A stretch of 32,000 nucleotides of DNA from Mesoplasma florum L1 (lineage in GTDB: Bacteria; Bacillota_I; Bacilli_A; Mycoplasmatales; Mycoplasmataceae), in contig NC_006055.1 in the NCBI RefSeq assembly GCF_000008305.1, positions 30,001 through 62,000 on the forward strand, read 5' to 3'. Numbering within the stretch: position 1 is the first letter of the stretch; the number at the start of each line of letters is the position of its first letter. The notes under the pieces are model-generated. The model had not been told where the DNA came from, did not search any database, and saw nothing but the letters and a program-made list of their open reading frames with translations. Below are positions 1 to 32,000 of this stretch, one piece after another. The translations under genes and the position numbers were made by a program.

Positions 1-27
1 CCATGAAACCTATTTCATGACTATAGG
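1..27 (+). promoter_or_regulatory. Purine-riboswitch-like aptamer, 3' portion only (cut by window edge)
   Basis: P3 hairpin catgaaa/ccta/tttcatg (2-19), then AC (20-21) and the 3' P1 strand tatagg (22-27). The layout matches the complete copies at 1006-1066 and 1977-2037. Confidence 0.6.
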
Positions 28-47
28 TCTTTATAAACACTTTAATT

Positions 48-90
48 AAAGTTTCTTTCAACATCAAAACTTGAAAGAAACTTTTTATTT
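48..90 (+). terminator. Intrinsic terminator / riboswitch expression platform
   Basis: 14-bp stem aaagtttctttcaa (48-61) / ttgaaagaaacttt (71-84), 9-nt loop, then a T-rich tail. It lies between the aptamer and the lipoprotein start. Confidence 0.75.
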
Positions 91-125: not shown

Positions 126-965
126 ATGAAAAAATTAATAGCAATTTTAGGGGCAGTTGGATTAACTGCTACAGGTTCAGCAAGTTTATTAGTTTCTTGC
201 TCAACACCAGTTGAAAAAGATTTTTCTTCTGAAATAGGCAAAATGGTAAAAGATTACATAAAAATTGATCAGGGAACTATATATGAAGATTCAAATGAAA
301 TTTATACAAAATTGAAATCGTTTAATAAAGAAATGGAATCTGAAATTTTAAAATTAAAAAATGTAGATGGAGTTTCAAAGTTTAATGAAAAAGAAGGAAC
401 ATTTTCTGATCCTGATTCAAGCATTAAACCATCAAGCGCAGATGCGGTATGATTTCATTCAGTTTACACATCATCAAGTGTAAGCGAATTCTCAAATAAT
501 AATGATTTTAATAAGTGAACAATTACTATTCAATACAGAACACCAGCAACTAATAAAACAACTGGTGAATTATATTGAGGAAAATATAATAAAACTTACA
601 TAAATGATATTGAATTTTTTAAAGCTAAAAAACCTAATGCGATATTAAAAAACTCAGATGGAACAGAGCAATCAGAAAATTCTTTTACTCTTGTAGATAA
701 TGAAGTAAAGATTAGAGTAGATAAAGGTTATAATAGAGAAAACATAATTCTTAATGGAAATGAAAAAATTACGGATATAAATATTTCACTTGATACTCAA
801 TTATTTGAAGAACCTGAAATAAAATTAGGCAATGATAAATTCCCAACATATTTTGATTTAACACTTAAATTAAAACAGGGACAAACATTATCAGTAGACC
901 AAAAAATATTTATTAAATTACCATCATTTCAAGATATTAAACTAATAATTAAAGCACAAAATTAA
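126..965 (+). CDS. Lipoprotein of unknown function (279 aa)
   Basis: Signal peptide plus lipobox MKKLIAILGAVGLTATGSASLLVSC. RBS aaagga upstream. The track ORF 126-452 continues in frame through TGA codons to TAA at 963-965, and I found no in-frame TAA/TAG. Confidence 0.8.
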
Positions 966-980: not shown

Positions 981-1005
981 TTTGTTAACAACTTAATATG
1001 AAAAA

Positions 1006-1066
1006 CTTATACAGGGTAGCATATTGGGCTACTGTTCCGCCTCAAGACCAATCTTGAGACTATAAG
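1006..1066 (+). promoter_or_regulatory. Purine-riboswitch-fold aptamer (guanine/2'-deoxyguanosine-like variant)
   Basis: Three-way junction. P1 cttata (1006-1011) / tataag (1061-1066). P2 gtagc-atattgg-gctac. J2/3 tgttccgc. P3 ctcaaga-ccaa-tcttgag. J3/1 is AC, with the C at the position equivalent to the specificity residue C74. The L2 GG and L3 CC needed for loop-loop pairing are present. Confidence 0.8.
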
Positions 1067-1069
1067 TGT

Positions 1070-1105
1070 AAAGGTTTTTTGGTTATCAAAAAACCTTTTT
1101 TATTA
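1070..1105 (+). terminator. Intrinsic terminator / riboswitch expression platform
   Basis: Stem aaaggtttttt (1070-1080) / aaaaaaccttt (1088-1098), loop ggttatc, followed by ttttatt. It sits directly 3' of the aptamer. Confidence 0.8.
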
Positions 1106-1148
1106 TCTAAAGTTTTTCTTTAGGTTGTATTCAAAATTAGGGGGAAAT

Positions 1149-1826
1149 ATGAAAAAATTATTAGCAATTTTAGGAGCAGTTGGATTATCAGTAACAGGAG
1201 CTTCAATAGTAGTTTCTTGTGGTGGTAATGGTAATACTGATATTACAGATCCTGAAACAGGCTTAGTTGCATTATCAAAAATAAAAAATTTAACTTTAGA
1301 TTTAGGGGAAATTGGAGAAAACAGTTCGCTGAATATATCTAAAGCTTTTTTTGAAAAAAATGAATCTGTATTAAAAAAAGCTGTTGGAGATACATTAACT
1401 GCAAATATGTTTTATGTTTCAAAAATAACTTCAACTTCAGCAACAATTACAGGTAAAAATACTAACCAGGAATTATTAAGTCCATCTGCAGATTTTGCAG
1501 TAACAGTTAGTTTTACATCAGAAAGCGATGGAAGAATAGACTTAGCAAAATTAGAAGGTCTAGTTACAAGTAATTTAATTGTTAATAAAACAAAGTATCA
1601 AGGAACAGGAAATTATGACAAATCAAATGCTATTGCAGATGCATTAATAGAAGCAAATAAAGAACTACTAAAAGAAACAGTAGCAAAAGATTTTTATTTA
1701 TTAAAGTCTGATCTTGTTGAACCGTCAGACGGCAAACCTGGTGTAGCAAAATTAGAAGGTAGCACATCAAGTTTAAAAGTAAAAAGTGGTTCACCAGTAG
1801 AAATAACATTTACACTAAGCGAATAA
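1149..1826 (+). CDS. Lipoprotein of unknown function (225 aa), two similar internal half-domains
   Basis: ATG at 1149 is preceded by the RBS aggggga. Lipobox MKKLLAILGAVGLSVTGASIVVSC. The track start at 1125 (TTG) is an unlikely extension. The signal-peptide DNA closely resembles that of the 126-965 gene. Confidence 0.8.
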   Translation: MKKLLAILGAVGLSVTGASIVVSCGGNGNTDITDPETGLVALSKIKNLTLDLGEIGENSSLNISKAFFEKNESVLKKAVGDTLTANMFYVSKITSTSATITGKNTNQELLSPSADFAVTVSFTSESDGRIDLAKLEGLVTSNLIVNKTKYQGTGNYDKSNAIADALIEANKELLKETVAKDFYLLKSDLVEPSDGKPGVAKLEGSTSSLKVKSGSPVEITFTLSE

Positions 1827-1832
1827 AACAAA

Positions 1833-1857
1833 AAATAGACATTGGTCTATTTTCTTT
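1833..1857 (+). terminator. Intrinsic terminator
   Basis: Hairpin atagac/attg/gtctat (1835-1850) followed by tttcttt. Confidence 0.6.
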
Positions 1858-1976
1858 GTGACTCTTATTTAATTTGTATATATAATAATATCACAAAAAT
1901 TAACACTTAACATTGTATTTAGTTTTTATAAAAAATAAATAATATATTATAATATCTTTAACTTAATAAAAATTAA

Positions 1977-2037
1977 CTTATACATGATAACATATCGGGT
2001 TGTCGACCTGCCTTAAGACCGATCTTAAGACTATAAG
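1977..2037 (+). promoter_or_regulatory. Purine-riboswitch-fold aptamer (variant, junction differs from the copy at 1006)
   Basis: P1 cttata (1977-1982) / tataag (2032-2037). P2 ataac-atatcgg-gttgt. J2/3 cgacctgc. P3 cttaaga-ccga-tcttaag. J3/1 is AC. Confidence 0.75.
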
Positions 2038-2070
2038 AAAATAAATATTATAAAACATTAAGTTGCTTCT

Positions 2071-2091
2071 TTTATTAAGTAATAAGTTTTT
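2071..2091 (+). terminator. Weak candidate terminator / expression platform
   Basis: 6-bp AT-rich hairpin tttatt/aagt/aataag followed by ttttt. It lies between the aptamer and the ATG at 2116. Stability is marginal. Confidence 0.35.
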
Positions 2092-2115
2092 AAAAAATAG
2101 GGGGAATATTTTTAA

Positions 2116-4194
2116 ATGAAAAAATTATTATTAACTTTATCTTCTGTAACACTTGTTGGTACAGCAGGTATGAGCGTTATCTCATGTGGGGTAAAACCAG
2201 AAAAATCTGTTATATTTATGCTTCCAGGTGAAGCTGTGGGAGTAGGATCAACAGATAAAATTGATGCTTATAATGATTTAGTTGATGAATTCAATGAATT
2301 ACATAAAAATGATTCAGGATTTGCGCCAATTAAAGTAAAGTGATCAAAATCAGGAACAATCAATGATTCAATCTTAACAGGTGATAATTTACCTGATTTA
2401 TATATAAGTTATGCAGATGCAGTTTCATTGTATGCAAATACAAAAGTATCTAATCAAGTGAGAGACATGGAAGCTTCATTAGGTGAAGCAGGATTTGCAA
2501 ACTTAAAAAATGACATAATAGATGATGCTTTTTTACAAGAAGGACAATATAAAGAACAGGGAAGTGACAAAGCAACTCAAGTTGTTTTACCATTTGGTAA
2601 ATCAGTTGAAATGTCAGTTATTAACGTAAACTTTTTCTTAGAATTTATTTCAAAAATTAGTATTACAGATTTTGATGGAGCATCAATTTCGCCTAAAGTT
2701 AAAACTGAGTTTGAAAAATTTAATGTTAATGAAAGAAAAAATTTAACTAATGAAACAGGTGCAATGTCTAAAACAACAATTTTTAGTGATAAAACTCCTA
2801 AGTTAAATGAACAATGATTCACAGAACATGGTTTAAATGATGCTTTAACAACACTACAAACTGCTTTAGCACCATTAACAAGCGTTGGATCTAGTTCATA
2901 CACAGGAGAATCTGTAGATGATCTAATTAGAACTATTTTTGCTAAAAATGATAATATAATAGCTTTAGCACAAGTTTACAACGAGATATTTAATGTTGAA
3001 AGTAATATTGAAGTTAAATATGCAAGTAAAGACGGAAGCGTTGTTGTAGATCCTTCAAATGGAAAACATTTTTCATTTGGAATTGATTCTTTAGCAAATA
3101 AATATTTTATGGACCATGCGGCTAGAACTAATAGCGGTTTAATTGATATTACTAATGAAGATAATGGTTTTTTCTACAGTGCAAATTATGATAAAGCAAC
3201 TAGAGTAGCAAACGTTAACTTTAATAAGAATTCTGTAGGATTTAATGATACATCAGAATTCTTGCAAGCTTTTAAAGATATTGCTGTTAAAAACAATAAA
3301 AGTGGTGGTTCATACGCTGAACAATGAAATAACACATTAAATTTAAGTAGACAAGAAGGTACAACAAAATACTATACAAGTGATAGCTTTTTAAATGGTT
3401 CTTCATTTATGTCAAGTGGTTCATCAGCAGGGGCTTACAATTTTACCAAAACAAAATATGTAAATAATACAGGGTATAATCCTGTTACAAATGCTGATGT
3501 AATAACAACTTCAACTTCAACTAAAGAAGGGAAAAATTCAGTTTTCATGTCTCAAGGTCCAGGAATAGCAGGATTCAAATCAAATGGTTCAAATGCAGCT
3601 GAGAAAGAGAAAACAGTTACAGAATTCTTAAATTATATTATGCAACCAAAACAAGCAGCAGATTTTGCGCTTAAATCAAATTATATGCCTGCAACAAAAT
3701 CTGGTATGTCTATATACCAAAACTATGTAAATGGTAATTACAATAATACAAAAGCAAATAATCAATCAAATGCAATAGTAAATCCAGAAGCATTACAAAA
3801 TGTTGTTGCAGAACTTAACACAAAAGAAGGAACAACAAAATATACAGTAGATAATACTTTTACTGCGATTTATTCAACAAGTAAAGGTTCATTAAGTTCA
3901 CAAGCATCTCCAAATGCAGTTAACTCAGGATTTATTGAAAAATATTTAGTTGGAAATTCAGAAAGAATATTAGTTGCTTCTACACCTACACCTATTGGTA
4001 CAACAGTTCGTGATTCAATTGCAACAGCTATTACTGGTAGTGGAACAATTACAGATTTAAGTAAAGCACCGGGAATTAAATTTGTTGAAATATTAGATGC
4101 ATCAAATACAGTTTATACATTACAAAATTATGTAATGAAAAAAAATAACACAGATATGTTTAGCAAAATTAATTTAACTCACAATGCAAAATAA
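2116..4194 (+). CDS. ABC transporter solute-binding lipoprotein, family-1 (sugar/CUT1-like), 692 aa
   Basis: Lipobox MKKLLLTLSSVTLVGTAGMSVISC. Four track ORFs (2116, 2428, 3109, 3409) share one frame and join through TGA, and I checked the gaps for TAA/TAG. It is the first gene of an ABC operon. It is much longer than typical ~420-aa binding proteins. Confidence 0.75.
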
Positions 4195-4225
4195 AAGTAA
4201 ATTTAAATAGAAAGTTTTTAAAAAC

Positions 4226-6583
4226 ATGAGTATTAAACTAAAAAATATAACAATTGACTATGGAAATTTCTTGGCGGTAAATGACCTAAGTGTAAATATT
4301 AATAAAGGGGAACTAGTTTCTCTTTTAGGACCTTCTGGTTGTGGAAAAACAACCGCATTAAATGCTATCGCAGGATTAATAAATACAACATCAGGACAAA
4401 TTCTTTTTGATGGTGTTGATGTTACACACAAAACACCTCAGCAAAGAAATATAGGACTAGTTTTTCAAAGTTACGCATTATATTCACATATGAGTGTTTT
4501 TAAGAATATTGCATATCCTTTATATCACTCAAAAGATTTTAAAAAAGAATTAGCAAGAGACAATTTTAAATATAAAAATAGATTAAAAGATCTAAAACAA
4601 ACAAAATCATACGAATTAATAATTAAACAACAAAATGATTTTTTAAATGATCTTAAAAGCTTTTTAAAATTAACAAATAATAATATTAAATTGTTAGAAA
4701 CAGAGTTTTTAAAAAAACATAAAGATTCAATTATTTCATATACTGATCAACTTTTCATAAATTATGAAAATTCAGAAGTATTAAAAAATCATTTAGTTAG
4801 CTACTTATATGACAAACTAAAAATTAAATTTAATGAAATTGAATCTGTTATAGAGTCAACAATTTTAAAAAAATATAAATTGTTATTAACTCATAAATTA
4901 GACGTTAGATTTCAAGGAACAATTGGTTATTACAGTTGATTAAATGAAAAAAATGTAAAAGATAATAAAAAACACTTGGCAGAACTTATCAAAACTAGCA
5001 AAATTTCAAAAAAACAAATTAGAAAAGAACAAAAAAAAGTTAGTGCTGAATTAGATATTTTTACTGCTTCTTCAACAGAAAATGGGTATGATAATTATAT
5101 TAATTCTAAAAACTTAATTACAAATTCTTTTATTGAGAATGAAGTAGCAGAACTTGAAAAAGAAATAAATGATTATTTTGATAAAGTTTTATTAAAAACA
5201 AAAGAACCAATTATAAAAAACAATAAAATTGAAAATTCTATTTCAAATATTTCAAAAAAAATTAATGCATTTAAAGTAAGTTATTTAAGTAAACATGAAA
5301 AATTAATTGTTAAATATATAAAAAGTATTTCAAACAAATTTCCTAATGAAATAGAAATAAAAGATAATTTAATTAATTACTTGTTTAATATATCAAAAAT
5401 AGAATTTAATTCTGTTCAAGAAAAGTTAAATGAGTTGATTTTTGAAAATATGCAAAGTTTTGTAAATTCTTGTGATAAAGATGAGTTTACTCAGTTAATA
5501 AATTATTATCCTTTAAATGTGAATGCATATTTAGAAGTTAGTGAATCAAGTAATGAACTTTTAAAAATTAATAATGAATTACAAAAGAATACTGATTTTG
5601 ATACATTAAATGATAATGAACATTATAAAAATTATCTTACTGAAAAAGAACAATTAACAGAATCATTGCTTTCAGAATTTGTTGTAAAATTGGAAAACTT
5701 TATTTCTGAAACTTTTGATAAATTACCAATTTTAGTTAATAATGAATTATCAAAAAATTCAATAAAAATTGATATTTCGGAATTAGAATCAGAAATTAGA
5801 AAAAATATTTTTTCAAAAAAACGTAAAATAAGATCATTAGTTTTAGAAGCTGCAAAACAAGTTGAAATTGAAACACAATTAAATAAAAAACCAAGTGAAT
5901 TATCTGGTGGACAACAACAAAGGGTTGCTATCGCAAGGGCTGTTGTAAAAAAACCAAGTATTTTACTTATGGACGAACCATTATCAAATCTTGATGCAAA
6001 ATTACGTTTAACAACTAGAGAATGAATTAAAAAATTTCAACAAAAAGTTGGAATAACAACTGTTTTTGTTACTCACGATCAAGAAGAAGCAATGAGTATT
6101 TCTGACTCAATTTTTGTTATGAATAAAGGGGTTTTACAACAAGGCGGAACTCCATTAGAAATTTATAATAAACCAAAAAATAAATTTGTAGCAAACTTTA
6201 TAGGAACACCTAATATTAATTTCATTGATGTTAAAGTCAAAAAATCTATTTTTGAATTGCCTTCAGGCGAGGAAATGACTATTAAAAATTTAAAAATTGA
6301 AAAAGAAAATTGAACTTTAGGAATTAGACCTGAAAGAATAAGTATTTCAGGAACTAAAGGTAAAATTTTCATTGGAGAAGGTGAAGTTTCTCTTGTCGAA
6401 CAATTAGGAAAACAAAATCATATTAAAGTTCGCTTAAATAAAGAATTGGAAATTACTTTAATATTAGAGCCACATGAATGAAATAATTTAAAAAATTCTT
6501 CAGTGTTAAAGCTTTATGCTAGAAAAGAAGACTTATACTTATTTGATACAAATACAAATTTAGTAGAGGTAAAATATGCGTAA
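4226..6583 (+). CDS. ABC transporter ATP-binding protein, MalK/UgpC-like, with a ~430-aa insertion (785 aa)
   Basis: Walker [11 protein letters not shown]-loop VFQSYALY, signature [14 protein letters not shown], Walker [14 protein letters not shown]-loop VTHD, and a C-terminal regulatory-type domain (FIGTPNINF...). Track ORFs 4226, 4976 and 6092 are in one frame, ending at TAA 6581-6583. Confidence 0.9.
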
Positions 6584-7565
6584 AAATAAGAAAGATGAAG
6601 GTTTTGTTTTAATTGATGATAGAGTTATAAATCCTAAAGGTAAAAAAGCAAAATCTAAAAATATGGAAAAAGGAAGATTTGACCTAATAAACCAATTAAT
6701 TTGGGTTTTACCAGGTTTATTCTTTGTATGTATATTTTCATACTTTTCAATTTTTATTGTTTTTAAATATGGATTAAGTGCGAATGGTGCAAATGGTGTT
6801 TTTATATTAAGCATTAAAAATATAGGTAATTTATTTACTGAGCCTACGCATGAATTTCCAATAGCGTTAAGAAATACTTTAATTTATGTTTTAGTTTCAG
6901 TGCCAATTTCATTGCTGATTGCACTTTGAACTGCCAAAGCATTAAGTAACGTTTTAAGTAAAAGAGCTTTTGCTTTTTTCCAATCAGCTTTCTTTTTACC
7001 ATATGTAACATCAGCACTTGCTGTTGCTATGGCTTTCTCAATATTATTTTCAACAAGTGATACATCTCTTTTAACACAATTATTAGCTAAATTAGGTTTA
7101 TCAAGGGTTGATTGAAAAGAACCTAAAAATGCTATGATAATGTTAATCATTTATGGTGTTTGAAAAATGTTACCTTTTAAAATTATTATGTTTACAGCAG
7201 CATTTTTAAGAGTTGATAAGCGATTATATCAAGCAGCATCTATAGACGGTGTACCAAGATGACAACAATTTTGAAAAATTTCTGTTCCTCAAATTATGCC
7301 AGTTATTATTTATATGATTACAACTGGTATTATTGGTTCATTTAAATTTATGCCTTTTGGTTTATTTGCTAACTATGAGGAAGCGGTTAAATCACAAGCT
7401 CAAACAGCAGTGTTCTTTATCTTTTCAAGAATTAACTCTGGTTCAGGAGGATTACCATCATATAGTACTGGTGGAGCAGCTTCTATAGTATTAATGGTTA
7501 TTATTTTAATTATGACGTTAGCTAATAGACAATTAAGTAAGTACTTAAACAAAAAATATAGATAG
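6576..7565 (+). CDS. ABC transporter permease (MalF/UgpA-like), 329 aa
   Basis: The ATG overlaps the ATPase stop by 8 nt. Multiple hydrophobic segments. EAA-type loop ASIDGVPRWQQFWKISVPQIMP. ORFs 6576 and 7296 join in frame through TGA. Confidence 0.85.
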
Positions 7566-7573
7566 GATTCAGC

Positions 7574-8899
7574 ATGGAAAAAATAAATAACGAGTGAAGT
7601 AAAAAAACTAAAACTGAAGATTGAATTCACAAAAATTCATTTAAAAAGATTTCTGTTAAAGATAAATCTTTTAATCAATCTGAATCTAATGTTGATTCCA
7701 TTATTTATGTTGAAAAAACAACAAAAGTTGTTAGTTCTGAAAAAGATAAACATGAAATAGTTGTAAATAAATTAACAAGAAAAGAAAAATATGAAAATGA
7801 TTTAAAATTTCAAGAAGAACAAATAACTTTAAGAGAATCTAAAATTGTTGTTGAAGCTAACTTTTTTAAGAGAATATGATTAAAGTTTTGTTTATCATTA
7901 TTTTTATTTTGAAATAAAAAACATTTTAAAATTAAGCACGCATTTTATATAAGATCAGTAAATAAAAGAAAAGATAAAACAATTAAAATGGCTGGTGATG
8001 TTTGATATAGAAGAATAGGGTCAAATTTATCAAACTATACAGTTTTAATTATTATGCTTATCGCCATGATATTTCCTTTTTATTGAATGTTAATAACATC
8101 TTTTAAGCCTTATTCAGAAGTTGACACAGGAGTAATGGAATCTCTTTGACCAAAACATTGAACATTACAAGCATATAAAGATATGTTTACATTTGTTAAT
8201 AATTCTGGTGGTAGAGAATCAATTCCATTTTCAAGATTTTTCTTTAACTCATTGTTCATTGCGTTAGTTTCAACTTTAGTGCAATTATCAGTGTCAGTTA
8301 TTGGTGGATTTGCAATTTATAACTGAAGAACAAAATTTAATTCATTATTTATGATTATTATGTTTTCAATTATGATGGTTCCAGGTGAGGCTATGTTGCT
8401 TGGTAGATATTGAATTGCAGTTCAAATGCAATGAAGAGATACTTTATTTGCCTTAATTGTTCCATTTATCGGTAACGTATTTACCATATACTTAATGAGT
8501 AATGCTTTTTACGGATTAAATAGAGATTTAAAAAGAGCAGCTAAAGTAGATGGATTATCAAGTTTTCAATACTTTATGAAAATAGCTTTACCTGCAGTTA
8601 GTGCAACTATATTAACATCATTTATTATTTCATTTATTGAATCATGAAACTCTGTTTTATGACCAATAACAGTTATTGATAATCAATCTGGACAATGAAG
8701 AACAATTCCAATGCTTTTATATTCACTAATGAATGTTAGTGGTATGACATCAGAAGAATTCCCAATTGCTGATCCTATTAATGTAAAAATGGCTGCCTCA
8801 ATTTTAGCTATTTTACCAATGATTATTGTATTTATTGTTTTCAATAAATGAATTATTAATGGTTTAACAAAAAGAAGCGTTGGAGGAACTAAGGGATAA
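7574..8899 (+). CDS. ABC transporter permease (MalG/UgpE-like) with a ~140-aa N-terminal extension, 441 aa
   Basis: Absent from the track because it has 15 in-frame TGA codons by my count. Hand translation gives no TAA/TAG. EAA loop RAAKVDGLSSFQYFMKIALPAVS. Ends at TAA 8897-8899. Confidence 0.85.
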
Positions 8900-10035
8900 T
8901 GAGAAAAAAAATAAACTTGCTATTTTTAAGCATGATACTTACTTTAATAGCTTTTTTGTCTATTTTAACAGTTTCTTGTGGAACTAAAATAAAAGAAATT
9001 ACCGGCAATGTTTCATTTTATGTATTATCAATTGGAAGTGGAAATTTTACTTTTTTAGAAAAAGATGGTCATGCAGTTGTAATGGATTCTGGGGTTGGTA
9101 TTGGTGAAAATAACAATGGAGATTCAATTGATTCAATATCATCAGAAACATTTGCTTTAAATAACGGAAGTTGAGTAACTGCAAATCCAAGGGATGGTAA
9201 AGCAATTACAGATTTTATGAAGAATACAGCTGGAGTTCAAGTTATTGATGCTATATTTATTTCGCACAAACATTCAGATCATTATAGTGCTTTAAAATAT
9301 CTTGTTCAGGAATTTGAAGTAGGAACTGTTATTGCTCCTACAGATAGTGCAGGTTTAGAAAAAGCAATCAGAGGTTACCAACCAAAAGGTCAAATGCCAG
9401 TAGTTGATACAAATTTTTCGAAGACTTATGAATTTTTAGGTGGAACATTTGAAAATTTAACAGCATATTCTTCAAAAAATGTTGTTAAAAGTTTATACAC
9501 AACAGATGATCCAAATGCCAATAGTATGGTTTTAAGATTTAAGGTAAATGGTAAAACATTTTTATTACCTGGAGATATGGAAAATACTTCAAAAGTTATG
9601 AGCGACAAAAAATTTTTAAAAGCAGTTTCATCACAACCTGTGGACTTTTATTTACTTGCTCATCATGGGTCAACAAATGGGGCCACTGAATTAACACCAT
9701 TAATTGGTAATAAAGAACGCTCTCCAGAACATATAATAATATCTGGTACAGATAATATTGATGGTTTTGAAAATTGATCAGGACAAAGAAATGCAGTGAG
9801 CAATTCAAAAACTCCTGTTGGTGAAGTTTTAAAAACATATGGTATGAAAAAAGAACCTTATGTATACATAACAGGCTCAGTTTTAACTGAAACTTTAAAT
9901 GATTTTCCTGACATAGTTGATAAAGATAATGTAAAATCAACGTTTGAATATAAATTCTCTGATAACAAATGAAATTTTATAGTTCATGATGAAAATATTT
10001 CAAATGGGTTTAATCAACAGTTAATTACTAAATAA
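8899..10035 (+). CDS. Surface lipoprotein with ComEC/Rec2-type metallo-beta-lactamase-fold hydrolase domain, 378 aa
   Basis: TAATG overlap with the upstream permease. Lipobox LSILTVSCGT. MBL motifs VVMDSGVG, HKHSDH (HxHxDH), LLPGDME and LLAHHGS. ORFs 8899 and 9217 join in frame, ending at TAA 10033-10035. Confidence 0.8.
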
Positions 10036-10039
10036 ATAA

Positions 10040-10084
10040 TTAAAAAGTTTTGTTCATGTTTGAATAAAACTTTTTAATTTGTTT
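10040..10084 (+). terminator. Intrinsic terminator closing the ABC operon
   Basis: 12-bp stem ttaaaaagtttt (10040-10051) / aaaactttttaa (10067-10078), followed by tttgtttt. Confidence 0.7.
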
Positions 10085-10144
10085 TATAAGTTTTGTTGTT
10101 TGAATTTTATTTTGTTAAAATAAATAAAAGAAAAGAGTGATTTT

Positions 10145-12943: not shown

Positions 12944-12951
12944 TATGTTAA

Positions 12952-12980
12952 AAAACAAACCTTAATGGTTTGTTTTCTTT
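12952..12980. terminator. Bidirectional intrinsic terminator between convergent genes
   Basis: Stem aacaaacc (12954-12961) / ggtttgtt (12967-12974), flanked by an A-run and a T-run. Confidence 0.7.
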
Positions 12981-18711: not shown

Positions 18712-19365
18712 TTAATATATTTTATTTTTCAACGGTGTTAATGTATAACAAATAATTGGTATTGTTATCAAATATAATAGTAAATCAAATACAGAGTTAA
18801 CTGCATTAACACTCATTGAATATATTCAAACCCCTTGACCTTCAGGGGCATATTGTCCATAAAATAAAACGCCCGCAAAAGTTTTTGATCAGAAGCCTAA
18901 AAATGAATAAATTATTATAACTAATATAAAAACCCATCTATTTAAAATTCATAAACTAATTCTTTTAACGTTGAATTTAACTCTGTCTCAAAATTTTAAA
19001 TTTACATTTGCTTTTTCTAAATATTGTTTGTACTCTCTTGGAATAAAAACACTGCATAAAGCAACTAAAAGAAGCGGAATAAAATAATCAAATAAATATG
19101 CCAAAGGAATTGCTGAATCGTAGTTTGCAGGCATGAAGAATGCTATTATACCTGCCAAGAAAACAACAATTAGTGTTCGTAATCAATCTGTATAACAAGC
19201 TAAAACAAATAATGGTATAAATTGTAAATTTAATGTTATAAAAAATGGCGGTATACTATATCCCGCTATTAAATTTAATACTAAATACAAAGATAACATC
19301 AAACCCATAACAGCAATATCTTTTGTTGTTATCTTTTTAATGCTCAAATAAAAATATCTTTTCAT
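18712..19365 (-). CDS. thiT: Thiamine transporter, ThiT-like membrane protein, 217 aa
   Basis: The track ORF 19183-19365 continues through TGA codons to TAA at 18712-18714 (frame checked). Polytopic hydrophobic protein. It lies directly downstream of a TPP riboswitch. The function is inferred mainly from that context. Confidence 0.65.
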
Positions 19366-19399
19366 GTAAAAGAACCTCCTACATAAAAAGACAGAAAAA

Positions 19400-19500
19400 A
19401 TATTTTAGGACTTCCTACGCTAGTATTAACTAGATCAGGTTCTAAGAGTATTTCTCAAGCTTTCGCTACCTCTGCCTTCTTACTCTTTAATAGTAGCATT
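19400..19500 (-). promoter_or_regulatory. TPP (THI-box) riboswitch
   Basis: The minus-strand RNA reads ...agcgaaagcuUGAGAaauacucuuagaACCUGAUCUAGUUAAUACUAGCGUAGGAAguccu... This matches the conserved UGAGA and ACCUGAUCUGGAUAAUGCCAGCGUAGGGAA cores of TPP riboswitches. I could not assign P1 confidently. Confidence 0.85.
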
Positions 19501-31928: not shown

Positions 31929-31950
31929 AAATCGGGGAAACCCGATTTTA
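31929..31950. terminator. Bidirectional intrinsic terminator
   Basis: Stem atcggg / cccgat with GAAA tetraloop (31931-31946), flanked by an A-run and a T-run. Confidence 0.8.
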
Positions 31951-31952
31951 AT

Positions 31953-32000
31953 TTAAAATTTCTTAGCAGCAGCAATCAAATCAGAAGTTATTGATGAAAC
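31953..32000 (-). CDS. C-terminal end of an unidentified minus-strand gene (partial)
   Basis: The reverse strand reads ...VSSITSDLIAAAKKF then stop (TAA = complement of 31953-31955). Too short to identify. Confidence 0.4.
   Translation of the reverse strand, partial: VSSITSDLIAAAKKF

Follow-up and report, generated by a model that had tools for sequence, protein, structure and literature searches.

A purine-family riboswitch, an ABC importer and a surface hydrolase in one Mesoplasma florum operon: a candidate system for scavenging nucleic-acid products

Genes and transcripts at the mfl021-mfl027 locus

The window analyzed here is a 32,000-nt stretch of DNA from Mesoplasma florum L1, in which genome position equals window position plus 30000. 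Reading it with genetic code 4 (TGA = Trp; GC content ~27%), we recovered every element listed in the first-pass annotation of this DNA. That annotation had described a single unit of tightly packed or overlapping genes running from an aptamer to a terminator, and published mapping by 5′-RACE and RNA-seq agrees: mfl023-mfl027 form one five-gene transcript, TU_023, extending from genome position 31959 to 40085, and all five products (5/5) were found by mass spectrometry (Matteau et al. 2020, PMC7745072). The same study places the operon gTSS at genome positions 31959-31960, a promoter motif at 31947-31953 and a terminator at 40046-40070 (window ~10046-10070), the last concurring with the hairpin and U-rich tract that we find at the operon end (Table 1). 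Within the operon, mfl024 and mfl025 share 8 nt (6576-6583), and mfl026 and mfl027 are joined by the sequence TAATG (8897-8901).

Table 1. Features of the mfl021-mfl027 region, in window coordinates
Feature	Position	Strand	Remarks
Third 2dG-type aptamer, 3′ part (P3 and P1 3′ strand)	1..27	+	truncated by window start
Intrinsic terminator of the window-edge riboswitch, before mfl021	47..88	+	published hairpin at genome 30050-30081
mfl021, 279-aa lipoprotein	126..965	+	conserved riboswitch-regulon member
2dG-I aptamer controlling mfl022	1005..1067	+	Rfam, 85.6 bits
Intrinsic terminator of the mfl022 riboswitch	1070..1105	+	13-bp stem and T run; published at genome 31072-31095
mfl022, 225-aa lipoprotein	1149..1826	+	LP_plasma signal
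Operon promoter and mapped TSS	1948..1960	+	-10 box TATAAT at 1948-1953; TSS A1960
Predicted long-range helix, 5′ strand	1961..1981	+	covers transcript 5′ end and P1 5′ strand
Purine-family aptamer of the operon leader, Rfam 2dG-I	1976..2038	+	Rfam search
Predicted long-range helix, 3′ strand	2058..2081	+	anti-P1 UUAAGUU, then complement of transcript 5′ end, UUUUAUUAAGU
mfl023, solute-binding lipoprotein, 692 aa	2116..4194	+	predicted UgpB/CUT1 fold, ~290 extra residues
mfl024, UgpC/MalK-type ATPase, 785 aa	4226..6583	+	C-terminal OB/TOBE domain
mfl025, UgpA/MalF-like permease, 329 aa	6576..7565	+	
mfl026, UgpE/MalG-like permease, 441 aa	7574..8899	+	~147-aa N-terminal extension
mfl027, surface lipoprotein, 378 aa	8899..10035	+	ComEC/Pce clade of metallo-beta-lactamase-fold phosphodiesterases
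Operon intrinsic terminator	10038..10079	+	hairpin -18 kcal/mol, U-rich tract next

Just 5′ of the operon lie two more riboswitches of the same class, which had been overlooked earlier. One is cut by the window edge; its remnant, CCAUGAAACCUAUUUCAUGACUAUAGG, matches the orthologous complete aptamers at L001:1366-1429 and L002:297-360, and its TSS lies at genome position 29946 (Matteau et al. 2020, PMC7745072). The gene that follows, mfl021, is homologous to that of a 263-aa lipoprotein of Spiroplasma culicicola (BLASTP, 6e-21), which also stands behind an aptamer, directly upstream of the S. culicicola version of the operon. By core typing, the second aptamer, in front of mfl022, has the classic C22/C51/G52/C74 core. 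Riboswitches of the 2′-dG-I class (Rfam RF01510) were reportedly described in M. florum by Kim, Roth & Breaker in 2007, with the prototype I-A upstream of nrdF, and we take the three aptamer copies at the mfl021-mfl023 locus to be, almost certainly, among the variants catalogued then. Because earlier publications already cover the transcription unit, this class of riboswitch and the idea of a nuclease acting with an ABC importer (proposed for Mycoplasma), the novelty of this locus is lower than the first-pass annotation had implied.

The operon aptamer and its leader

The assignment of the operon aptamer to the purine/2′-dG class was confirmed by Rfam: the 2dG-I model scores 81.3 bits (E = 1.7e-16), where the gathering score is 51. 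Among the six leaders compared, compensatory changes occur at 8 of the 19 pairs in P1-P3. The aptamer shares with the 2′-dG-I riboswitches the three-way junction, the C22-G52 pair and C74, as well as the organism and the location in a 5′ UTR. Its core is, however, typed as C22/U51/G52/C74, with U51 in place of the C51 found in the prototype, and nucleoside-versus-base selectivity is credited to C51. Given this substitution, 2′-dG is not assured as the ligand, which may be guanine; the core of the aptamer copy in the S. culicicola operon is wholly guanine-like.

The operon aptamer also differs from the prototype in what it controls, an importer rather than a biosynthetic enzyme, and in what follows it. 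In the mfl023 leader, from the aptamer to the initial ATG, we found no intrinsic terminator and no convincing SD-sequestering helix, and no expression platform was identifiable there; this terminator gap had gone unremarked. The leader instead contains a predicted long-range duplex that would compete with P1 (-13.0 kcal/mol; z = -3.9 against shuffles).

It is doubtful, though with some small chance of being right, that regulation in M. florum L1 is a relic, the aptamer having ceased to control the operon once its terminator was lost and the operon having become effectively constitutive. Such a reading could draw on the U51 change and on the terminators present in the operon leaders of M. corruscae and '[A.] multilocale' as well as in the mfl021 and mfl022 leaders. 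It could likewise draw on a crude FPKM/TSS ratio of 2.7 for the mfl023 operon versus 0.4-0.5 for mfl022 and nrdF, which suggests little attenuation of the operon in rich medium. Yet compensatory changes keep the aptamer helices intact in five leaders that lack a terminator, drawn from two paralogous lineages, and the leader-specific P1-competing pairing is preserved in the paralogous leaders despite their different sequences, with matching insertions.

The importer proteins and the surface hydrolase

Mfl023 had been described as an unusually long family-1 binding lipoprotein. Its length and lipobox (VISC|G) agree with that description, but a Pfam search matched it to no model, and its place in the UgpB/CUT1 fold comes from a predicted structure and the family profile. 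The AlphaFold2 model (pLDDT 88, pTM 0.90) appears UgpB-like, with UgpB, a dinucleotide-binding protein of T. thermophilus and sugar-binding proteins as top Foldseek matches; the sugar binders are about equally similar in fold, and many of the top matches bind maltose, trehalose or glucan. At the sequence level, Mfl023 is homologous to the binding protein of the S. culicicola operon (E = 3e-42) and matches the NCBIfam P68 lipoprotein family under the cut-off (E = 1.6e-15), a sub-threshold tie to the P68/P80 lipoproteins of Mycoplasma. The best PDB profile match of the Mfl023 family is the T. thermophilus UgpB-like dinucleotide (UpG)-binding protein, over a region that includes the conserved (G/N)Y(V/M)P motif, at just ~12-14% identity. 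This protein is reportedly the subject of Chandravanshi et al. 2021 (PDB 7C0F and related). It, UgpB and Mfl023 all belong to the CUT1/UgpB clade, and phosphate-containing ligands are bound by the first two and putatively by Mfl023, which is lipid-anchored and ~290 residues longer than the T. thermophilus protein.

The MalK-like ATPase and the MalF- and MalG-like permeases proposed for the next three genes were found as such. Their best NCBIfam matches are UgpC, UgpA and UgpE, all far under the equivalog cut-offs, and KEGG annotates them as msmX and multiple-sugar permeases (Matteau et al. 2020, PMC7745072). A further feature of the ATPase, not remarked on before, is an insertion of ~414 aa at residues ~116-529.

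For Mfl027, the earlier description of a lipoprotein with a ComEC/Rec2-type metallo-beta-lactamase (MBL) part was borne out by its lipobox (TVSC|G), by the motifs HKHSDH (residue 123), PGDME (224) and AHHGS (254), and by matches to Pfam Lactamase_B (5e-10) and TIGR00361 ComEC_Rec2 (2.4e-9). Residues H123, H125, D127, H128, N206, D226, H255 and H256 are invariant in 15 family members, the Asn aligned to the DDNSNS motif of Pce being among the invariant positions, and the putatively binuclear metal-ligand site is intact as judged from these residues. Pce is the top PDB match both by sequence (profile E = 8e-15) and by fold (E = 2e-10), with the ComEC C-terminal domain also among the matches of both kinds; Mfl027 is at least as similar to this phosphorylcholine esterase as to ComEC.

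The ComEC C-terminal domain is reported to be an experimentally shown metal-dependent nuclease (PMC8579336, PMC12455585, PMC13539106). Mfl027 shares its MBL subfamily, extracytoplasmic location and metal-ligand motifs, but is a free-standing lipoprotein that lacks the OB-fold and channel domains, has a C-terminal region of ~100 extra aa and is encoded beside ABC importer genes. It is also acidic in its mature form (pI 5.4, net charge -9), an uncommon property among proteins that grip polymeric DNA. Pce/CbpE of Streptococcus pneumoniae, a teichoic-acid phosphorylcholine esterase, is likewise a surface-exposed MBL phosphodiesterase, but Mfl027 lacks choline-binding repeats and its context points to nucleic-acid metabolism; Mollicutes are not known to have teichoic acid.

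The module in other genomes and its possible function

A G-type purine-family aptamer precedes the five-gene module at 10 of the 11 loci examined in Mesoplasma, Spiroplasma and '[Acholeplasma] multilocale'. These are the modules of M. florum L1, M. coleopterae, M. tabanidae and M. corruscae, a paralogous second module in M. florum W37 and M. chauliocola, and the modules of S. culicicola, a Spiroplasma endosymbiont, '[A.] multilocale' (46 bits, under the Rfam gathering score) and S. helicoides (where the aptamer is classed as Rfam Purine). All three Spiroplasma operons (3/3) contain a DHH/DHHA1 gene for an NrnA-type nano-nuclease, the S. culicicola protein matching B. subtilis NrnA with E = 2e-72. 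The hydrolase gene is always last, with overlapping stop and start codons, across Mesoplasma, Spiroplasma and the paralogous module. In '[A.] multilocale', a Bmp-type nucleoside transporter is preceded by the same aptamer class, and in rich medium expression of mfl023-mfl027 is accompanied by that of nrd and the dAK/dGK kinase.

On this comparative evidence, mfl023-mfl027 is probably, though far from certainly, a riboswitch-tied system for scavenging and importing extracellular nucleic-acid products, the likeliest being short oligo(deoxy)nucleotides or nucleotides. The first-pass annotation had proposed a module that senses purines, breaks down external DNA or oligonucleotides and takes up what this yields. 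That proposal is strengthened by the linkage of aptamer and module, the Spiroplasma NrnA genes, the kinship of Mfl023 with a dinucleotide binder and the Bmp importer behind an aptamer, but it is only partly supported because the hydrolase is acidic and Pce-like, the aptamer carries U51 and no expression platform was found.

In the scheme we envisage, the operon is transcribed as an 8.1-kb mRNA, mapped in published data from A1960 to the terminator at ~10040-10080. Lipid-anchored Mfl027 at the cell surface would cleave external DNA or oligonucleotides at their phosphodiester bonds, and Mfl023 would capture phosphate-containing fragments for the Mfl025/Mfl026 permease, powered by Mfl024. Cytoplasmic NrnA-type nano-nucleases, nucleotidases and the expressed deoxyadenosine/deoxyguanosine kinase would then feed the dNTP pool. 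Expression would be tied to the guanine/2′-deoxyguanosine status of the cell through the purine-family riboswitch: in what is the weakest part of the scheme, the ligand-bound aptamer might lock P1 against the long-range helix (1961-1981/2058-2081) and expression would fall, in parallel with the known 2′-dG OFF switch at ribonucleotide reductase.

The GenBank name 'sn-glycerol-3-phosphate ABC transporter', the leading UgpC, UgpA and UgpE matches in NCBIfam, the presence of UgpB among the top fold matches of the binding protein and the lead of Pce among those of the acidic hydrolase would all suit a Ugp-type glycerophosphodiester/phosphocholine-ester system. Here a Pce-like Mfl027 esterase at the cell surface would act on lipids and polymers of the host or the environment, freeing phosphocholine or G3P, and Mfl023-Mfl026 would import the phosphate ester. 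We consider this unlikely, as it leaves unexplained the ten aptamer-led loci, the NrnA genes of the Spiroplasma operons and the same aptamer class at ribonucleotide reductase and the Bmp nucleoside transporter. The Ugp matches are, moreover, all sub-threshold, choline-binding repeats are absent from the hydrolase, and Pce is the known closest structure to the ComEC nuclease domain (PMC5031224).

A plain sugar or oligosaccharide CUT1 importer with the hydrolase gene as an unrelated passenger is hardly credible, even with the KEGG names msmX and 'multiple sugar transport', the MalK-type OB/TOBE tail of the ATPase and the many sugar binders among the fold matches. The position and overlap of the hydrolase gene are kept across the Mesoplasma and Spiroplasma modules, the paralogous one included, a purine-family riboswitch and a co-operonic NrnA would make no sense, and M. 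florum sugars enter via PTS systems, some of them encoded nearby. Quite improbable, too, is that Mfl027 is a detached ComEC nuclease domain that works in transformation, bringing in DNA for that purpose and not as a nutrient. Its naming in GenBank, as 'ComEC/Rec2 family competence protein' and as 'DNA uptake protein', and the match to the ComEC C-terminal domain would fit, as would a published table listing mfl369 (comEC proper, 619 aa) with a 'ComEC superfamily' domain only, such that it may lack an MBL domain of its own. However, published values show mfl369 to be essentially unexpressed and mfl027 well expressed, and homologues of mfl027 are co-operonic with ABC importer genes at every locus examined and never with competence genes, the module having been duplicated whole.

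The scavenging reading can be set beside Mycoplasma operons of co-transcribed genes for a lipoprotein, a surface nuclease and a Ugp-like ABC transporter, for which a role in importing nucleic-acid precursors has been proposed (PMC3585158, PMC9740415). We compared M. agalactiae MAG_5030-5070, M. hyopneumoniae mhp379, M. genitalium MG_186, M. pneumoniae Mpn133 and M. gallisepticum MslA/MGA_0676; MslA is reported as a polynucleotide-binding lipoprotein. Both kinds of operon combine a large sugar-binder-like surface lipoprotein, a lipid-anchored phosphodiesterase, an ATPase and two Ugp/sugar-type permeases. They differ in the hydrolase fold (ComEC/Pce-type MBL in M. florum, staphylococcal nuclease, TNASE_3, in Mycoplasma) and in gene order, the hydrolase gene being last in M. 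florum whereas the Mycoplasma nuclease gene precedes that of the ATPase. Riboswitch control in M. florum and the added NrnA of the Spiroplasma versions are further differences.

Bacteroidetes 2′-dG-II riboswitches (Weinberg et al. 2017) are reported to lie upstream of genes for ComEC, endonuclease I and phospholipase D (PMC8872408). They resemble the M. florum operon in that a 2′-dG-type aptamer goes with genes whose products cleave DNA or are of the ComEC type. They belong to a different phylum, and no ABC importer is reported in the Bacteroidetes setting. Their signature, U22/C51/C74, is common to the operon aptamers of the Spiroplasma endosymbiont and '[A.] multilocale'.

Organization and transcription of the mfl023-mfl027 operon

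The first-pass annotation had proposed a single, tightly packed transcription unit that starts with a 2dG-class aptamer, ends at a terminator near 10040 and closes with a hydrolase carrying the motifs HKHSDH, PGDME and AHHGS. Every element that it listed is present, including the 8-nt overlap and the TAATG stop/start at the gene junctions. The window has a G+C content of ~27%, and its genes, fragmented under genetic code 11, are intact under code 4 (TGA = Trp), with which all proteins were translated. Published transcript mapping experimentally establishes one 8126-nt unit, TU_023, that comprises mfl023-mfl027 (Matteau et al. 2020, PMC7745072). By the gene coordinates of that study, each window position is the L1 genome position minus 30000. 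Its genes are expressed at 1274-5505 FPKM, and mass spectrometry detects all five proteins (PMC7745072).

Features of the operon and of other riboswitch-associated loci, in window positions
Feature	Position	Strand	Basis or remark
Third 2dG-type aptamer	1-27		P3 and 3′ strand of P1
Terminator hairpin of third aptamer	~50-81		
mfl021, lipoprotein	126-965		
mfl022 riboswitch unit	987-1148		TSS 987
mfl022 aptamer, 2dG-I	1005-1067		complete; classic C51 core
mfl022 terminator	1070-1105		strong
TU_023 -10 box	1948-1953		PMC7745072
TU_023 TSS	1960		PMC7745072
Operon aptamer, 2dG-I	1976-2038		RF01510, 81.3 bits
Long-range helix	1961-1981 with 2058-2081		-13.0 kcal/mol
mfl023, binding lipoprotein	2116-4194	+	ORF, code 4
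mfl024, ATPase	4226-6583	+	ORF, code 4
mfl024 insertion	~4571-5812		residues ~116-529
mfl025, permease	6576-7565	+	ORF, code 4
mfl026, permease	7574-8899	+	ORF, code 4
mfl026 N-terminal extension	7574-8014		residues 1-147
mfl027, hydrolase lipoprotein	8899-10035	+	ORF, code 4
Operon terminator	10038-10079	+	strong A/U-rich hairpin; published prediction 10046-10070 (PMC7745072)
Hydrolase-DUF1904 spacer	10036-10144		ordinary promoter only
Thia_YuaJ thiamine transporter gene	18712-19365	-	
TPP riboswitch	19395-19483	-	64.5 bits

The hydrolase and the importer

The hydrolase mfl027 combines a lipobox (TVSC|G) with a metallo-beta-lactamase (MBL) domain (Pfam Lactamase_B), and it matches the C-terminal region of the ComEC/Rec2 model (2.4e-9). 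An HMMER scan of 1.84 billion representatives returned 998 relatives at E <= 1e-3 and only 18 at E <= 1e-10, the closest with a source name belonging to Mesoplasma, Entomoplasma, '[Acholeplasma] multilocale' and Spiroplasma. All 15 family members compared share H123, H125, D127, H128, N186, N206, S209, D226, H255 and H256. The HxHxDH motif and downstream Asp/His metal ligands of the MBL fold are thus present in mfl027, and its binuclear metal site is intact.

Against solved structures, the mfl027 family profile matched Pce/CbpE, the phosphorylcholine esterase of S. pneumoniae, at 8e-15 and full-length ComEC at 1.6e-13 to 1.5e-12. Similarly, a Foldseek search with a fold model of moderate confidence (pTM 0.76) ranked Pce first (2e-10) and the beta-lactamase-like C-terminal domain of Moorella ComEC next (1e-8). 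Pce is the closest known structure to the ComEC domain, and the two form one clade (PMC5031224). Profile and model searches together place mfl027 within this Pce/ComEC clade of extracytoplasmic phosphodiesterases, not clearly on either side. The proposed ComEC-type MBL lipoprotein stands as regards the metal site, the ComEC/Rec2 match, the free-standing form and the lipoprotein signal, with the qualification that Pce is at least as close. The ComEC domain is a metal-dependent nuclease by experiment (PMC8579336, PMC12455585, PMC13539106). The ComEC channel architecture (OB fold and competence domain) is absent from mfl027, a free-standing 378-aa lipoprotein whose mature form is acidic (pI 5.4), a mild argument against its binding polymeric DNA tightly.

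The genuine comEC of this genome is mfl369 (619 aa, genome positions 429810-431670), whose one domain in the published table is 'ComEC superfamily'; the gene shows next to no expression, and the protein was not detected. Should mfl369 lack an MBL domain, as it may, mfl027 would be the sole ComEC-type hydrolase of the cell.

The 692-aa binding protein mfl023, 100% identical to an M. florum L1 database entry, itself matched no Pfam model, though three of its paralogues match PF13416. An AlphaFold2 model built from a 21-sequence family alignment (pLDDT 88, pTM 0.90) predicts a type-2 periplasmic binding protein fold of the SBP_bac_1/8 kind, with CUT1-type binders as the best matches in the PDB (TM-scores of 0.6-0.66 per target for UgpB and MalE-type proteins). 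The top matches are a cyclic-maltosyl-maltose binder, the E. coli and M. tuberculosis UgpB proteins and a dinucleotide-binding protein from T. thermophilus, the last of which was crystallised with UpG and has been assigned to the phosphate-ester binders of the UgpB clade (PMC12718374). The best match of the family sequence profile is this dinucleotide binder (E = 5e-4), followed by UgpB (E = 0.025), and the matches cover a region with a conserved (G/N)Y(V/M)P motif, the signature region of the UgpB clade. The label of family-1 binding lipoprotein is thus supported by fold and family profile, but not by a Pfam match of its own. The NCBIfam model for P68 family surface lipoproteins also matches mfl023 (E = 1.6e-15), but its 57 bits fall well short of the cut-off of 200; 16 of 21 family members match this model. 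UniRef names one paralogue 'P80 family lipoprotein'.

As the first-pass annotation had it, the remaining genes encode a MalK-like ATPase and MalF- and MalG-like permeases: mfl024 is of the UgpC/MalK type with a C-terminal OB/TOBE domain, and mfl025 and mfl026 are UgpA- and UgpE-like BPD_transp_1 permeases (NCBIfam, Pfam). This is the composition of a CUT1/Ugp importer, with all scores falling below the equivalog cut-offs. The ATPase contains a K/E/N-rich insertion of ~414 aa that separates its Walker A/Q-loop half from its signature/Walker B half; the ABC_tran match is split in every orthologue, whose lengths are 608-795 aa. The permease mfl026 carries a lysine-rich N-terminal extension of ~147 aa outside the UgpE family model.

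Riboswitch control of the module in other genomes

The gene order of this five-gene module is kept in 10 further loci. M. coleopterae, M. tabanidae and M. corruscae each have the complete module, with the hydrolase gene last, and M. florum W37 and M. chauliocola have a paralogous second module after lysS; each of these five Mesoplasma copies lies directly behind an Rfam 2dG-I aptamer (64-90 bits). In M. melaleucae the locus is rearranged, with at least ~900 nt between its aptamers and the binding-protein gene downstream. In S. culicicola, a 2dG-I aptamer (58 bits) precedes genes for the binding protein, a DHH/DHHA1 protein, the ATPase, two permeases and the hydrolase; S. helicoides has the same order behind an Rfam Purine match (47 bits), and in the Spiroplasma endosymbiont of Crioceris asparagi (2dG-I, 66 bits) the DHH/DHHA1 gene comes first. 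Two tandem modules in '[A.] multilocale' lie behind a 2dG-I match of 46 bits, below the gathering score, followed by a terminator. The binding proteins of M. florum and S. culicicola are homologous (E = 3e-42), as are mfl021 and the lipoprotein that precedes the S. culicicola operon under riboswitch control (E = 6e-21).

The DHH/DHHA1 protein is homologous to NrnA (E = 2e-72 to B. subtilis NrnA, with the NCBIfam NrnA model as top match). NrnA acts in the cytoplasmic breakdown of 2-5-nt oligonucleotides and of pAp. Its gene within an importer operon would be most simply explained by short oligonucleotides as cargo. Taken together, the comparison across genomes is the strongest new evidence presented here.

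Several loci differ locally. M. florum L1 lacks the second module after lysS (window 12944-12978; compare loci L003 and L004 of M. florum W37 and M. chauliocola). A 2dG-I aptamer with terminator separates the hydrolase gene from DUF1904-dus-lysS in M. coleopterae (L001:11154-11215) and M. tabanidae (L002:11128-11190); the corresponding spacer in L1 contains no aptamer. Adjoining the tandem modules of '[A.] multilocale', a 69-bit 2dG-I aptamer with a U22/C51 core (L019:10480-10543) precedes a Bmp-type nucleoside ABC transporter.

In the window, the operon aptamer scores above the threshold of the 2dG-I family, a purine-type three-way junction of P1, P2 and P3 with an L2-L3 loop interaction, and 2dG-I is its best model within the purine clan (gathering score 51). 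The aptamer fold is common to six operon leaders, in which compensatory changes support 8 of its 19 pairs. We numbered the core residues after Wacker et al. 2011, in which C74 is the Watson-Crick partner of a guanine-type ligand and C51 is credited with selectivity for nucleoside over nucleobase (PMC3159443). The operon copy has C74 and the C22-G52 pair (alignment A6) and reads GACCUGCC, which places U at position 51; its M. coleopterae and M. tabanidae orthologues, like the neighbouring mfl022 aptamer, have C51. The classic C22/C51/G52 core occurs in most Mesoplasma copies, including that of mfl022. C22/U51/G52 is shared by the operon copies of L1 and M. corruscae and by the M. tabanidae copy in front of DUF1904, U22/C51/A52 (the 2′-dG-II signature) by the Spiroplasma endosymbiont and '[A.] multilocale', and the guanine-like U22/U51/A52 is found in S. 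culicicola. All copies typed have C74, so the operon would, from sequence, always be expected to respond to a G-type purine compound. For the L1 copy this would be 2′-dG or guanine, between which the sequence does not decide.

Leader architecture and candidate cargo

In the I-A prototype, the expression platform is an intrinsic terminator that forms upon ligand binding. We found no intrinsic terminator between 2039 and 2115 of the operon leader, either in our search or in the published terminator predictions. Terminators do accompany the mfl021 and mfl022 riboswitches, and M. corruscae and '[A.] multilocale' have them in their operon leaders. Two other candidate elements were rejected: a hairpin at 2062-2083 before a U5 run (7 bp with one G-C, two G-U and otherwise A-U pairs) is too weak for a terminator and is not conserved, and anti-Shine-Dalgarno pairing of CUUCUU (2066-2071) with AGGGGG depends on G-U pairs and is missing in paralogous leaders.

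Instead, all leaders that lack a terminator have a long-range helix in their minimum-energy fold; in the window it joins the mapped 5′ end and the 5′ strand of P1 to a downstream segment. RNAalifold on whole leaders recovered the aptamer alone, as indels disrupt the alignment of this helix; we therefore scored it by per-sequence duplex energies against shuffles, obtaining z from -2.0 to -6.1 in six leaders. The helix is kept despite different sequences and with matching insertions in paralogous leaders, which argues that it is real. It is predicted to compete with P1, so that ligand binding should choose between P1 and the helix. The ratio of FPKM to TSS signal, a crude measure, is 2.7 for the operon, 0.4 for mfl022 and 0.5 for nrdF, which suggests little attenuation of the operon in rich medium. 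By analogy with nrd and the terminator-bearing orthologues, ligand probably turns the operon off.

Terminator-containing lipoprotein leaders also pair their 5′ end with a segment near the Shine-Dalgarno (SD) sequence. The Mesoplasma 2dG-type leaders examined start at a conserved 5′ AACUUAAUA or its variant AACUAAAUA, the 5′ end being mapped experimentally in M. florum L1 only. This element pairs upstream of the SD in both the mfl022 leader (990-1009 with 1110-1128) and the operon leader, and the complementarity holds even across an intervening terminator. The resulting structure may be a 5′-end-sequestering helix of read-through transcripts.

Mollicutes lack de novo nucleotide synthesis, and the assumption for ~30 years has been that surface nucleases coupled to an ABC transporter let them live on nucleic acids of the host or the environment. 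To our knowledge, the substrate of such a transporter has never been established. In Mycoplasma, a P80-type lipoprotein, an SNase-type surface nuclease and a Ugp/sugar-like ABC transporter are co-transcribed and were proposed to import nucleic-acid precursors (PMC3585158, PMC9740415). The operon shares with the MAG_5030-5070 type of this set a co-transcribed large lipoprotein, a surface phosphodiesterase, an ATPase and two permeases. In contrast to the staphylococcal-nuclease (TNASE_3) lipoprotein of that set, whose class the first-pass annotation had named, the M. florum hydrolase has an MBL fold, and Pfam and NCBIfam detect no SNase domain in any operon protein. In Bacteroidetes, genes for ComEC and endonuclease I have been reported behind 2′-dG-II riboswitches (PMC8872408). 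In the dataset that covers the operon, M. florum expresses ribonucleotide reductase, which is under the prototype 2′-dG OFF switch, and a deoxyadenosine/deoxyguanosine kinase. The operon context fits all of these.

We lean towards a system, tied to a purine riboswitch, that would cleave external nucleic acid at the cell surface and import the fragments. Three independent pointers, none from pathogenic Mycoplasma systems, suggest such fragments as cargo: purine-family riboswitch control at ten loci, NrnA in Spiroplasma operons, and a dinucleotide binder among the nearest solved relatives of the binding protein. These favour the purine-sensing scavenging of DNA or oligonucleotides put forward in the first-pass annotation, whereas U51, the lack of a platform terminator and the Pce-like, acidic hydrolase count against it. 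A relic riboswitch in strain L1, which concerns regulation only, would accommodate U51 and the missing terminator, but seems unlikely beside the compensatory changes in the aptamer helices and the long-range helix. That the Pce match and the UgpB kinship reflect a Ugp/Pce-type phosphate-ester system is quite unlikely, with NrnA and the purine-family aptamers on the other side. Despite the ComEC/Rec2 match, a competence accessory role for mfl027 is improbable in a protein co-transcribed with an importer, and a plain sugar importer, to which the CUT1 composition and MalE-type folds could point, is highly improbable next to the riboswitch and the hydrolase.

A fuller version of the favoured scavenging system can be offered only tentatively: a dedicated bacterial ABC importer of short oligo(deoxy)nucleotides, in which the ComEC/Pce-type surface hydrolase would trim external DNA, the UgpB-derived lipoprotein bind the fragments and NrnA finish their breakdown inside, under a terminator-less riboswitch acting through competition of P1 with a helix between the very 5′ end of the mRNA and a stretch beside the ribosome-binding site. 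The riboswitch output would then be mRNA stability or translation; we know of no purine riboswitch described with an output of this kind through such a helix, and the leader may represent another mode of purine riboswitch action. If scavenging holds, a free-standing, lipid-anchored ComEC/Pce-type hydrolase would be a new fold among mollicute surface nucleases. M. florum is fast-growing, non-pathogenic and genetically tractable and has transcript and protein maps, and the cargo question is therefore directly testable. While earlier publications cover the aptamer class, the transcription unit and the general idea of a nuclease paired with an ABC transporter, the placement of the hydrolase partner in the ComEC/Pce MBL clade, the cross-genus conservation of riboswitch control over the module, NrnA within Spiroplasma operons, the kinship of the binding protein to a dinucleotide binder and the terminator-less leader architecture are new.

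The operon is the last of three riboswitch-controlled units in tandem. Upstream of it, a third 2dG-type aptamer, cut by the window start, and its terminator hairpin control the lipoprotein gene mfl021, and mfl022, which encodes a 225-aa lipoprotein, is under a second complete 2dG-I riboswitch; Pfam and NCBIfam detect a lipoprotein signal in both and no family besides. Canonical Purine riboswitches (RF00167) in M. coleopterae (L001:19946-20042) and M. tabanidae (L002:14207-14303) precede phosphoribosyltransferase and xanthine/uracil permease genes, equivalents of which are absent from that position in the L1 window. The TPP riboswitch in the window lies upstream of a thiamine transporter gene, an ordinary arrangement.
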